From: Eledone cirrhosa
Taxonomy: Eukaryota
Assembly: GCA_964016885.1 (NCBI GenBank)
Contig: OZ024742.1
Span: forward strand, 91,016,001 to 91,080,000
Length of the DNA stretch: 64,000 nt
Direction of reading: 5' to 3'
Part shown: positions 42,843 to 49,830 of the stretch, one piece after another
How the letters are laid out: every line of letters begins with the position of its first letter
Numbering within the stretch: position 1 is the stretch's first letter
Position numbers and translations under genes: made by a program
The notes under the pieces: model-generated
What the model was told of the DNA's origin: nothing
The model's input: only the letters and a program-made list of their open reading frames with translations
Databases searched by the model: none

Positions 42843-43362
42843 ATGTATATATAATGTATTTTGCAATACACTTTATGCTTAATTAAAAGCATTTTGAAGA
42901 CTGTTTTAGAGTAGTGACAAACTCACTTACTTTAATCTCAGCAAACAGGGGAGATAGGCCGACAAGGCCTTGTTTCGCATTTATTGATGCTTATCAAGGC
43001 TAACTACTCCCTCCTGTCTACTGAGATCACTGATATTTTATTCTTATAGAATTCTAGTAAATAATCAGGAACTGATTATACAGAGCGGTTGCCGGTCAGG
43101 CAGAAATTAAAAATTAGAATTGGAGCTCTGAAATAGCAATATATATATAAATGTATATATAATGTATTTTGCAATACACGTTATACTTAATTAAAAGCAT
43201 TTTGAAGACCGTATGTTATTGTTTTAGAGTAGTGACAAACAAGGCCTTGTCGGCTTATCTCCCCTGTTTTCTGAGATTAAAGTAAGTGAGTTTGTCACTA
43301 CTCTAAAACAATAGCATACGGTCTTCAAAATTTTTTGCTATTTCAGAGCTCCAATTCTAATA
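42843..43362 (-). mobile_element. ~307-bp monomer HHR element, partial tandem plus inverted end, in (TA)n
   Basis: ATGTATATATAATGTATTTTGCAATACAC at 42843 and 43151; inverted segment 43238-43362. Confidence 0.82.
42950..43010 (-). ncRNA. Hammerhead ribozyme with U3-A8 core variant
   Basis: Minus strand: GCC-TTGATAA-GCAT caataa ATGC-GAAACAAG gc CTTGTC-GGC; palindromic stem III ACAAGGCCTTGT. Confidence 0.75.
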
Positions 43363-43667
43363 TAATATATGTGTGTGTGTGTGTGTGTGTGCGTGTGTGT
43401 GTGTATATATATATACACCACCTTCACCACTTATTGATTTGACAGATGTCTTCAACCCATTGATACCAATATATATATATATATATATATATATATATAT
43501 ATATATATATATATATATATATATATATATATACATATATATGTATATACATATATACGTGTGTGTTTGTGTATGTGTGTATGTGTGCCTGTATTTGTGT
43601 GTGCACGTGTGAATATAATATTATATGTGTATCCGTGTGCGCATGTTTATGTATGTTTATATTTTTG

Positions 43668-43796
43668 TACGGGTGGCCCAAAAGTCGCGACACATAAAAA
43701 AAATAATTATGTTTAATAAGAAACAATTTATTAAAAATAAATAAATATGGAAACTTAAAAATCTCCTATGTATTGCGACTTTTGGGCTACCCTGTA
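43668..43796. mobile_element. Tc1/mariner-type MITE
   Basis: TA-CGGGTGGCCCAAAAGTCGC ... GCGACTTTTGGGCTACCCTG-TA. Confidence 0.7.
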
Positions 43797-44222
43797 TATA
43801 TGTATATACGTATATATCTGTGTCTGTGGGGAGGAGTCCGTGTTCTTCCTTTAATATTATATAACTCATATATTCGCTCCATAATTTTCCCCTCTTTAAG
43901 TGTTTCTTTTTTCTTGTTGTTGCAGCATTTTCCATACGTAAGCCTCTGAGAAATAGAAAAACAGTCACTCGAAATACATATGGGTAATTGTTATATAGTT
44001 GATTACAATCTAAGTACAAGAAAATACTAAATTTGCAATGTCTATTGCGGAACGAGCGGGACATATAATATGCAGTAATGCAGACACGGTTATTTAGTGG
44101 AGACAAACATTCAATTAAAAATAAATGATAAAAATAAAATAAAACAAAAATGCTCAAAACAAACAAATATAAATGTACTCTGATAGTTTACAATGTAATA
44201 ATATTATTATAATATTTTTTTA

Positions 44223-44652
44223 ATTGGCAGCATCGATTGAGCGTCAGACACCATGCTTTGCAGCGTAAAATTATGTATGGCCCTATATGTTCTAAGTTCA
44301 AATCATGCCGAGTCTAGCTTTGCCGTTCATCCTTACAGGTCGATAAAATAAAGCACTAGTAATGTACTGGATCTATTTAATCGACTTTCACTCCCATTCA
44401 AATTGTAGAAACAATTATTATTATATTCTTTATATTATATTCTGGCAGTATCTGTAGAGCGTCTGACAAAATGCTTCGTGGCATAAAGTTACGCTTTACG
44501 TTCTGAATTCCAATTCCGCCGAGGTTAACCTTGCTTTTCCTCCTAACTGGAGTCGATAAAATAAAGTACCAGTAATGCACGGAGAAACGATTTAATCAAC
44601 TTTTCCCTCTCTCAAAAATTGCTGGCCTTGTCCTTAAATCAGAAACAATTAT
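44223..44652 (+). mobile_element. Two tandem dominant SINE copies
   Basis: 44223-44420 and 44442-44652, each with B-box, GTCGATAAAATAAAG core and AGAAACAATTATT tail. Confidence 0.8.
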
Positions 44653-45639
44653 TATATTTTCTTTTCTCGTAATAACACAAATAAAAGAAAATAATAGTTT
44701 TAATATATCCCTTGATTTCTTTGGGCAAGAATCATTTCACGGAAAATATCTAACTGTTAAAAAGAGATTGTGTTTCTTGGTTCGCGGGAGAGAAACTCTA
44801 ATATGTATATAAATAATGATTTATGATTCAAGTGAAGAGGCAAATTCGGAGAAAGGTACTTTTAGATTTCAATTGTTCTTCACTCAGTTGCCCACACATT
44901 AATGCAAACCGTGTGCATACATAATCGTACATACATTCTCATTTTTAGTTAGCTTTTGTGGCACATACAAATTATCTCAGCTATCCGATTGTTCCTCTCT
45001 CTCTTTCTCTCCCTCCCTCTCTCTCTTTCTTTCTCTCTGATGTTGGCATCATTTATCTACCAATTATCGTGTCATGTCTCTCTACAATAAACAAAAGGTG
45101 GCAGTAGTAATAAAGCATTAAAAACACTAACTAAAACAAGAAAACTACTACTGCGCACTCACACAAACACGATAACACATAGACCTGTTAAGTTACAAAA
45201 ACAAACACACACATACACGTAAATGCACACTTATACGCAAAGTGGCTATGCTACGATGGGGCAAATGCAAATAGAACTAGTGCCCAAGGCGCCTGGTTTT
45301 GTGAAAAGCAAATTTAAAATTTTTTTTTTTTTTTTAATTAAAATATGTTCCTTTGGAAATGTACTAGCACCACATTTCATACTCCATCATCTTCTCTTTC
45401 TGTCTATTTATCTCTGTATATATATATGATGGCTGAAACTTGATTTTTGAGTAATGCTATTCCTTGATACATAAGGAGGAGCTTTTTATTTGGTGCTAGG
45501 GACATACCGACGGCCAATCTTACCATGCAACGCAAAAGATGTCACATATTATTTTAAAGTGAGGAAAGGCTTTGCATGGAGCCAATCCCACTCTCTGAAC
45601 ATCGAATGCATTTACTAAAAAAGTAGAACTAGTCTACTC

Positions 45640-47952: not shown

Positions 47953-48135
47953 TACAGGGGTCGGCTGAAAAGTTCATAGGCTGAACAAGATACTGTTATG
48001 GAATGACCAAATGTGGTTTATTATTCAACATAGTCCCTGGAAAGAAACAATTATTAATCAGCGTTGAAATTAATGCATGCAAGATTTCATAGCTCTAGCA
48101 TAATCAGCCTATGAACGTTTCAGCCCACCCTCGTA
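47953..48135. mobile_element. Mariner-type MITE, second copy
   Basis: TA-CAGGGGTCGGCTGAAAAGTTCATAGGCTGA ... TCAGCCTATGAACGTTTCAGCCCACCCTCG-TA. Confidence 0.85.
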
Positions 48136-48221
48136 CATACACATTTATACTCACCTTAAAACTAAAATCATATAGTCGCTACCACCAAACCCCTCAAAGA
48201 AAATTTAAAAAATAATAATAA

Positions 48222-48651
48222 TAATTTGTAGTATAGGCACAAGGCCAGTAATTTGGGGGGAGGGGAAAGTCGATTAAATCGACCCCAGTATGTTACTGGT
48301 GCTTTATTTTATCGACCCCATAAGGATGAAAGGTAAAGTTAACCTCGGCGGGATTTGAACTCAGATCATAAAGGGCCGTAACTCTACAATCCAAAGAATG
48401 GCGTCCGACCCACTACCAATACTGCCAATCCACCGCCCTTAATAATATTAATAATAATAATAATAATAATTGTTTCTACTTTAGGCACAAGGCCAGCAAT
48501 TACCCAGTGCATTACTGGTACTTTATTTTATCGACCCCGTAAGGATGAAAGGCAAAGTCAACCTCGGCGGGATTTGAACTCAGATCGTAAAGGGACGTAA
48601 CTATGCTGGAAAGCATGGCGTCCGACCCTCTACCGACACTGCCAATCCACC
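48222..48651 (-). mobile_element. Two tandem dominant SINE copies
   Basis: 48222-48438 and 48468-48651 separated by (AAT)n; the second is almost identical to 1051-1235. Confidence 0.88.
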
Positions 48652-49283
48652 AATAATAATAATAATAATACGAATGTAAACGCCCAGTGCTAGAAATAAC
48701 AGCTAGAACAATTCGTGAGTTATTGTTCATATATAAATATCAACACCGAAAGGCAGAATCAGTTATCATCTATGATAATTAAGATAGAGCATTGTTATTC
48801 TTACATGCTCTCTGTATTATGTTTGGTGACTGCATTTTTATGAGTGTGTGATGTGTGATTGTGTGCCTGTGCGTGCTGTCGCCTGTGTTTATATAGGCTT
48901 ATATGTGAATTGAGATTGTTTAAATGTGAACAAATGCGTGAGGTGAATGTTCAAACGTGCATCCATGTGTGTGCGTGTGTGTGTGTGCGTAGCCACATAT
49001 TATTCTTAATACACAGTATCGCGGATTTTGTTTAGAGTAGGTAAGCAATAACAAGATGACTATTGGCTATTTATTTAGTTAAACATTTCATCTGTACAAA
49101 CCAGACACATGTATGAACACAATTACACTCTTCTCATTAATTCACACATTCACACAGAAACGTTACAACACTCACGCACGCACACACACACACGCGCACG
49201 CCACGCATATATATATATATATATATATATATATATATATATATATATATATACATATATACATATATATATATATATATATA

Positions 49284-49830
49284 TTAGAATTGGTGCTCTG
49301 AAATAGCAATATATATATGAATGTATATACAGAGTATTTTGCAATACACTGTATGCTTAATTAAAAGCATGTTGAAGACCTTACGCTATTGTTTTAAAGT
49401 AGTGTCTATGTCACTTACTTCTTTTTTCAACAAACAAGGGACTACTTTAAAACAATAGCGTAAGGTCTTCAAAATGCTTTTAATTAAGCATACAATGTTT
49501 TGCAAAATACACTATATATACAATCTTATATATATATATCGCTATTTCAGAGCACCAATTCTAATTTTCAATTTTTGCTGGACCGGCAACCGCTCTGTAT
49601 AATCAGTTCCTGATTAATACTGGAATTCTATAAGAATCCAACATTCATAATTTTCAGCAGGCAAAGCGGGTGTACCAACAGTATGAAACAGAGATCTGTC
49701 AGCTTATCTCCCTTGTTTGTTGAAAAAAGAAGTAAGTGACATAATCACTACTTTAAAACAATAGCTAAGTTCTTCAAAATGCTTTTAATTAAGCATACAG
49801 TATTGCAAAATACACTATATATACATTCAT
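49284..49830 (+). mobile_element. Second locus of the ~307-bp monomer family (inverted end plus partial tandem; HHR 5' core lost)
   Basis: ACTACTTTAAAACAATAGC at 49441 and 49747; 49284-49404 inverted; GAAACAGA ga TCTGTC remnant at 49685-49700. Confidence 0.82.

Follow-up and report, generated by a model that had tools for sequence, protein, structure and literature searches.

Composite insertions of a small hammerhead element with Penelope-like anatomy in Eledone cirrhosa

Introduction

How did two composite loci, each built from about 1.3 copies of a short hammerhead-bearing unit joined to an inverted piece of that unit, arise in the genome of Eledone cirrhosa? Both lie in a stretch of 64,000 nucleotides (nt) of contig OZ024742.1 (positions 91,016,001 to 91,080,000), hereafter the window, which consists of AT-rich, microsatellite-dense animal DNA with a repeat landscape reminiscent of that of octopods. 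Our preferred answer, to which we give a probability of about 0.78, is that the loci represent dead-end copies, inserted at dispersed sites, of a ~318-nt non-coding element with a hammerhead, a retrozyme-like, non-autonomous Penelope-like element (PLE) mobilized in trans by a PLE protein combining reverse transcriptase (RT) and GIY-YIG. Both loci are real and form a well-supported further example of an already known kind of element. An earlier note on this DNA, made from the sequence alone, had described two loci (locus 1 and locus 2), each with ~1.3 direct units, an inverted segment whose end is TATTAGAATTGG, and (TA)n alongside, and the sequence bears this description out.

Anatomy of the loci

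Three copies of the unit are present in the window: two composite loci, in opposite orientation, and one simple copy (the third copy), which was absent from the earlier list of two loci. The hammerhead sense strand is minus at locus 1 and plus at locus 2. Positions preceded by a sign are counted from the predicted cleavage site.

Locus 1
43240 to 42831, minus strand: direct part, ~1.3 units
43140-43240, minus strand: 5'-truncated direct copy, starting at +39
43113-43139, minus strand: internal tail, 27 nt, between the putative reverse-transcription start sites +139 and +166
42831-42960, minus strand: 3' direct copy, from the cleavage site to the fixed 3' end, with a TA-rich hairpin merging into the (TA)n target and a private 10-nt deletion between 42902 and 42901
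43237-43362, plus strand: inverted 5'-truncated copy with its start at -15, an internal deletion and its end in the tail
42790-42830: (TA)n target tract

Locus 2
49441 to 49838, plus strand: direct part, ~1.3 units
49441-49565, plus strand: 5'-truncated direct copy from +47 onward; internal tail at 49540-49565
49701-49838, plus strand: 3' direct copy, ending in TA at the same fixed 3' point as the other copies
49283-49441, minus strand: inverted 5'-truncated copy, starting at +9 and ending in the tail (49283-49308)
49207-49282: (TA)n target tract

Third copy
36760-37058, plus strand: divergent copy with a C3-G8 hammerhead core at 36885-36891, a short palindromic helix III and a 3' end in TA as in the other copies

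Conserved box
43066-43096 (minus strand, locus 1), 49582-49612 (plus strand, locus 2) and 36787-36817 (third copy): best-conserved part of the unit

At each composite locus, the direct and inverted parts are joined 5'-to-5' beside (TA)n. The direct parts of both loci stop at +139 in one TA-rich hairpin and then run into (TA)n; the third copy shares this 3' end. The inverted parts of both loci stop at an identical base, +166, which is 27 nt beyond +139, so that the 27-nt tail is carried as a terminal segment by the inverted copy only. The direct parts start within ~7 nt of each other (+39 and +47), and the inverted parts start at -15 and +9. The circular permutation between copies proposed in the earlier note is thus not borne out: the ends fall at two constant sites separated by 27 nt, and the inserts are permuted relative to the cleavage-defined monomer only, not relative to each other. 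The inversion junctions contain 4 nt of microhomology at locus 1 (43237-43240) and 1 nt at locus 2 (49441). A (TA)n tract adjoins all three copies, and such tracts are very common in the window.

Comparison of the repeated segment revealed 94-98% identity within loci (6/6 pairs) and 78-92% between loci 1 and 2 (9/9 pairs). Since copies within a locus are closer to each other and the inversion junctions differ, each composite was assembled from its own template rather than block-copied. The within-locus differences are private to each copy; this fits copies that were identical at insertion and is uninformative on the choice between a circle and a uniform multimer. Both direct parts and one inverted part cross the cleavage site, indicating that the template was unbroken there, as in a circle or an uncleaved multimer, which we regard as about equally probable. 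The proposal of reverse transcription around a circular or multimeric RNA holds to this extent, but terminal redundancy alone is no proof of a circle, multimers being equivalent in this respect.

The repeat distances of 308 and 306 reported previously can be measured (308; 305-306), but they do not define a ~307-bp monomer. At locus 1, the period is 308 on one side of the private 10-nt deletion and 318 on the other; at locus 2, it is 305-306, with ~17 nt of the hammerhead missing. The two values therefore reflect private deletions at each locus, and the intact unit is ~318 nt long, non-coding, with 33% GC. Stop-free frames of at least 110 amino acids were found at neither locus 1 nor locus 2, and the unit contains no RT or GIY-YIG open reading frame (ORF); thus, it is not an autonomous PLE. 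No tRNA gene was found, and the unit therefore does not have the head of a tRNA-derived short interspersed nuclear element (SINE).

Loci 1 and 2 are 81% identical to each other; the third copy, about one unit long, is colinear with them at 60-63% identity. The conserved box is a GC-rich hairpin in which 24/24 specified bases are identical across copies that are only 60% identical overall, and it is the part of the unit with the deepest read coverage. It is a candidate promoter or protein-binding site, and searches of metagenome and viral contigs gave 0 matches to it.

In loci 1 and 2, each of the four 5' ends falls within -15 to +47 of a cleavage site; with so few cases, arrest of the RT near the ribozyme is a possible reading of this clustering. 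The 5' repeat of a coding PLE next to locus 1 (42210) and the inverted copy of locus 1 (43237) each begin at their own hammerhead GAAA.

Comparison with Penelope-like insertions and animal retrozymes

The four-part layout, the tail ends and the 3' ends are identical at both loci and match the anatomy reported for PLEs (PMC8557442; PMC3846280). As in insertions of endonuclease-positive (EN+) PLEs (PMC8557442; PMC3846280; PMC11167929), both composite loci (2/2) display a partial tandem with 5' truncation, an adjacent inverted 5'-truncated copy and a tail at one end; an AT-rich or microsatellite target, a hammerhead in the terminal repeat and microhomology at the 5' junction are also shared. Unlike EN+ PLE insertions, the loci lack RT and GIY-YIG ORFs, and their tail comprises 27 nt instead of 30-40. 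What the earlier note called a fold-back end corresponds better to the inverted 5'-truncated copy, with tail, of PLEs. This combination of tandem, inversion and tail has already been published for PLEs (PMC8557442), as have a circle model for PLE tandems (PMC4209133) and a PLE origin of retrozymes (Li 2026, bioRxiv 10.64898/2026.07.22.740005).

The element probably works like a non-LTR (long terminal repeat) retrozyme moved by a PLE. The unit resembles metazoan non-LTR retrozymes (PMC7229834; bioRxiv 10.64898/2026.07.22.740005) in size and composition (non-coding, 150-450 bp, <50% GC), in its type I hammerhead with palindromic helix III, in its predicted self-paired circle and in its co-occurrence with PLEs. 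The loci differ from such retrozymes in consisting of 1.3 units with one or no complete hammerhead, rather than arrays, and in combining a 12-nt palindromic helix III with a U3-A8 core. They also bear the inversion and tail scars of PLEs, which the text consulted does not describe for animal retrozymes. An active retrozyme is defined by a minimum of two successive units whose hammerheads are complete (bioRxiv 10.64898/2026.07.22.740005), and the loci are accordingly classed as retrozyme-like offspring copies, not as active retrozymes. The non-autonomous Chlamys elements, such as MRC1 (PMC8557442), are likewise non-coding PLE derivatives that yield pseudo-LTRs (pLTRs) and head-to-tail copies. 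They differ in being green-algal, in belonging to a clade described as lacking canonical hammerheads and in having 3' ends that resemble those of autonomous partners, whereas no such likeness was found here to the coding PLEs of the window. No report on the unit family, or on tail-and-inversion scars in animal retrozymes, was found in a literature search that did not extend to most subscription papers, nor to supplements, Repbase or Dfam.

Based on these likenesses, we propose the following sequence of events. A donor of at least two tandem units would be transcribed, and two hammerheads would pair via the palindromic helix III and then cut; the resulting monomers may be ligated into circles, as suggested by data on other animals' retrozymes (PMC7229834). 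A PLE protein would then nick a (TA)n tract, and reverse transcription would begin inside the RNA at two fixed sites, +139 and +166, as the work on PLE proteins suggests (PMC11167929). The spacing of the two RT starts would constitute the tail, which is the origin of the tail given in the same paper. The first cDNA would extend over 1.3 units, through the cleavage site, and the second, on the other target strand, over 0.4-0.5 unit; the 5'-truncated cDNA ends would finally be joined by microhomology. Identification of the inverted copy with the second cDNA draws on the two-strand extension in PMC11167929, and the steps of cleavage, circularization and two-site internal priming, like the identity of the enzyme, are taken from the literature. 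Uncleaved RNA was the dominant PLE substrate in vitro (PMC11167929). The enzyme class is present in the genome, to judge from two coding PLE remnants with GIY-YIG in the window.

The mobility of animal retrozymes has so far been inferred from co-occurrence and phylogeny (PMC7229834), the mechanism being described as still to be elucidated (Li 2026). The PLE-specific tail and inversion would link a small hammerhead element to PLE chemistry through the anatomy of its copies, and for the in vitro PLE assay that already exists, the unit offers a substrate of 318 nt on which the start sites are predicted.

The hammerhead motif

The hammerhead elements of the two composite loci are as follows.

42944-43018, minus strand: type I hammerhead domain of locus 1; helix I is extended, and cleavage is predicted between 42961 and 42960
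42997-42991, minus strand: locus 1 core U3-U4-G5-A6-U7-A8-A9 (UUGAUAA, U3-A8 variant), from the motif and read variation
42977-42990, minus strand: locus 1 helix II, 4 bp with a 6-nt loop
42962-42973, minus strand: locus 1 helix III, a perfect 12-nt palindrome, computed self-duplex -19.5 kcal/mol
49655-49725, plus strand: locus 2 hammerhead remnant, with ~17 nt deleted (5' strand of helix I and core); GAAA and an imperfect, different palindrome (49688-49699) retained

The UUGAUAA core and the 12-nt palindromic stem III had been attributed to both loci. They are present at locus 1, where the palindrome is perfect, but locus 2 lacks the core and its palindrome differs and is imperfect, and the third copy has a canonical C3-G8 core at the position homologous to the U3-A8 core of locus 1. 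Locus 1 has these features of a type I hammerhead: the 3-8 pair, G5, A6, A9, G12-A13-A14, A15.1-U16.1, H17 and helices I to III. One complete hammerhead is thus present at locus 1, none at locus 2 and one in the third copy, indicating that loci 1 and 2 are unable to release a monomer in cis, since each has at most one.

The U3-A8 motif is weak on its own, because the loose pattern arose in 3/20 shuffled windows (0.15 per shuffled window) and the strict pattern in 1/20. Its homology to the canonical hammerhead of the third copy, together with the read variation described below, places it beyond chance, and the hammerhead is probably functional at the family level. The earlier argument for a functional ribozyme rather than a chance match is upheld at that level. 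Canonical hammerhead motifs were found at 14 positions in the window, against 0.05 expected. Rfam gave no match at gathering score in the window: Hammerhead_HH9 scored 17.7 bits (E 0.15) against a 52-bit cut-off, and miRNA-type matches at the E-value level were rejected as hairpin or TG/TA artefacts.

The U3-A8 core itself is not new. Covariation from C3-G8 to U3-A8 occurs naturally and is stated to be active in vitro (PMC3088659), and ~1,300 U3-A8 matches are reported among PLE-type motifs of Schistosoma mansoni (PMC4209133). The latter are minimal hammerheads without helix III, whereas in the motif studied here helix II has 4 bp, helix III is long and palindromic, and the whole lies within a small non-coding unit.

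Variation in public sequencing reads

A search of public runs listed 16 runs from 11 studies, of which 13 held part of the stretch; no RNA run holding the stretch was listed. Reads from 4 of the 16 runs (X1, X4, X5 and X14) were placed on positions 42902-43240 at ≥80% likeness to locus 1, with 43130-43240 left out. X14, a restriction site-associated DNA (RAD) library, contributed 4021 placed reads; X5, one of nine runs listed with a small share, gave no depth over the core.

In X14, changes in all three helices kept the base pairs. In helix II, A-U was replaced by U-A in 271/620 and 272/596 reads at the two positions (~45% of placed reads); in helix III, A-U was replaced by G-C in 76/604 and 62/588; and in helix I, C-G was replaced by U-G or U-A in 208/595 and 175/612. 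A further helix I change, A-U to G-U, was present in 233/590 reads, and 622/626 reads restored at position 42957 the fourth helix I pair that is missing at locus 1. No variant row fell in the core among the 40 of 62 rows listed. These pair-keeping changes around an unchanged core argue for selection on the RNA.

In X1 and X4, the A>G places (8 and 9) and T>C places (2 and 4) were all accounted for by non-core positions; because these positions fill the tallies, C3 and G8 would each be below 5% in both runs, provided that 5% is the threshold of the tally. Loose ends in three contigs of X1 and one of X4, which carries a second species label, combine the locus 1 core with a different helix II. 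U3-A8 is thus common across the locus 1 subfamily under two species labels, and UUGAUAA is not private to a single copy. The helix I changes in X4 had equal depth sums (9.89, two contigs), suggesting that they are linked, with phase deduced from depth rather than read directly. The third-copy type appeared as loose ends in 1525 reads of X14, one contig of X4 and one of X5, indicating that the canonical sister subfamily is common.

Two other readings of these data were discarded. Read ends piled up at 43050-43053, 43108 and 43115, which are AATT sites in the RAD library and not biological ends. The idea that a palindrome of the locus 2 type implies a C3 core is countered by an X4 contig in which, from the depth sums, the palindrome changed and the core did not.

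Predicted folding and a putative dimer switch

Folded as a circle, the 318-nt period had a predicted minimum free energy of -78.1 kcal/mol (z -5.97), and 0/60 shuffles were as low. In the lowest monomer fold, 43000-42995, including U3-U4-G5, was paired with the first half of the palindrome at probabilities of 0.83-0.98, and the active monomer fold was predicted to lie 4.8 kcal/mol higher. When two copies were co-folded without constraint, a double hammerhead (-58.5) was favored over two monomers (-47.8), and both cores were unpaired. The third copy behaved like locus 1 (-39.7 versus -33.6), so that dependence on a dimer is not specific to U3-A8; it is a known rule for animal type I hammerheads (PMC4209133). 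Distinctive to the locus 1 type is a predicted 6-bp lock engaging U3. A palindrome of the locus 2 type is predicted to retain the lock via a U-G pair, and a variant present in a single contig is predicted to break it. The lock may be a by-product of a palindrome that arose through copying of the core region.

A more ambitious version of our proposal would make this lock a switch. In the monomer or circle, the first half of the palindrome would hold U3-U4-G5 together with the 5' strand of helix I; in multimers, the palindromes would pair with each other and free both cores. The U3-A8 pair would be co-adapted to this switch, and the fixed ends and tail would be direct anatomical evidence for two-site internal priming by PLEs on animal retrozyme circles. 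We consider this whole picture doubtful. Were it correct, the element would be a metazoan circle that shields itself by pairing, since the locus 1 monomer is predicted to be self-blocked, unlike most metazoan circles, which leave the hammerhead free (PMC7229834).

Alternative origins

Several observations weigh against mobilization of a small hammerhead element in trans by a PLE. No tandem donor of the unit family was seen in the window, and comparison of the unit with the terminal repeats that the window's two coding PLEs carry gave no significant scores (26, 37 and 30 versus shuffled maxima of 48, 47 and 41). The tail is slightly short in comparison to published ones. Neither composite locus has the two complete hammerheads of an active retrozyme (Li 2026), and 8/9 Xenopus retrozyme dimers were uncleaved in vitro (bioRxiv 10.64898/2026.07.22.740005). 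The ends merge into TA tracts, where a target-site duplication is unreadable; in metazoan non-LTR retrozymes such duplications, when present, exceed 4 bp. The whole comparison of ends is based on two composite loci and one simple copy. Regarding the reads, only those resembling locus 1 were placed, the source sample is possibly X1, the rows listed for X14 leave out one A>G and two T>C places, an insertion beside G12 was present in 60/621 X14 reads, and one X1 contig had a different, 11-nt self-complementary insert in helix III.

The strongest competitor, which we nevertheless judge unlikely, takes the unit for no more than a terminal repeat, with pLTR and tail, belonging to a longer coding PLE. 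The loci would then be short insertions of that PLE that were truncated or had lost internal sequence, and a small RNA standing on its own would not exist. In its favor, coding PLEs have this anatomy, a hammerhead lies in the inverted terminal repeat of the PLE remnant at 21360-23060, animal retrozymes are related to pLTRs (bioRxiv 10.64898/2026.07.22.740005), and the third copy is only about one unit long. This explanation is countered by the short, ORF-less link from tail to hammerhead, which is common to two independent loci that are 81% identical and colinear in a third copy of 60% identity; by the lack of homology to the two coding PLEs of the window; and by the good folding of the period as a closed circle.

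Reverse transcription around a free circle from variable entry points, followed by self-priming fold-back, would produce circularly permuted inserts. Such a template would be endless at the cleavage site, as both direct parts and one inverted part require; a circle model exists for PLE tandems (PMC4209133), and self-priming is an earlier proposal for PLE inversions (PMC3846280). However, all three copies share one 3' end, the same tail base ends both inverted copies, and the junction is 5'-to-5' with microhomology. A circular template may still have been used, though not with random permutation, and we regard this scenario as very improbable.

A DNA-level origin, in which a fold-back unit resembling a miniature inverted-repeat transposable element, or a satellite monomer, was rearranged by template switching with the hammerhead as a decayed passenger, accommodates the long inverted arms of each locus (133 nt at 93% identity at locus 2), the TA flanks and the lost core of locus 2, but it is scarcely credible, since block copying predicts that equivalent parts of the two loci are closest, whereas the higher identity is within loci and the junctions are unlike, and since pair-keeping changes in three helices around a constant core argue for selection on RNA.

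Coding PLEs and other hammerhead elements in the window

The window contains two coding PLE remnants and two further hammerhead families.

37341-42210, minus strand: near-full-length degenerate PLE with an RT-like frame, YLDD, a CX4CX2C linker, GIY-YIG (E 1.1e-7), 148-nt terminal repeats and a 3' end in (TA)n
~21347-23060: 5'-truncated PLE with a GIY-YIG remnant (E 0.0005, below cut-off); both of its inverted terminal repeats contain a minimal hammerhead, and additional short pieces, tandem and inverted, are present
27776-29185, minus strand: 472-bp tandem family, ~3.2 copies 97-99% alike, with three canonical type I hammerheads and a circular fold z of -11.6; a relative lies at 29542-30047
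24270-24630, 60938-61093 and 29320-29359: a further family of small hammerhead elements, present as direct and inverted pieces; its helix III is long, and its fixed 3' end lies in (TA)n

The layout of the PLE at 37341-42210 fits Neptune or Nematis (compare PMC8557442). Several frameshifts interrupt it, and a piece near 39320-39460 is inverted within it. For an RT-like frame in the window, the best Atlas cluster was eukaryotic and commonest in Mollusca; Pfam gave no RT match on the PLE frames, and PDB gave no match. A decayed hammerhead-like motif in the 3' terminal region of this PLE (37470-37505, minus strand) has U3-A8, a 6-nt palindromic helix III and a broken helix II; it could link U3-A8 to a coding PLE or could merely reflect decay. 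The unit tail and this Neptune-type PLE share the end TTCTAATA, a weak lead, as 7 such sites occur in the window, 4 of them unrelated. A 70% relative of the 5'-truncated PLE lies at 8636-8847.

The 472-bp family is, by its arrangement and motifs, a textbook tandem retrozyme. Homology of the unit to the two other hammerhead families was not significant; a score of 49 for the 472-bp family (shuffled maximum 47) came from TA-rich sequence only. The core and helix II of the other small family resemble those of the third copy. Isolated canonical hammerhead motifs were found at 42246-42279 (plus strand), just beyond the 5' end of the coding PLE and on the strand opposite to it, and at 11579-11606 (minus strand).

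Two further repeats were seen. The end of a 37-bp repeat adjoins TA tracts four times, at 49838-49876 (directly to the right of locus 2), 29474-29510, 32367-32403 and 34434-34470. At 57747-58079, a 182-bp unit, SINE-like by eye, forms 1.8 tandem copies.

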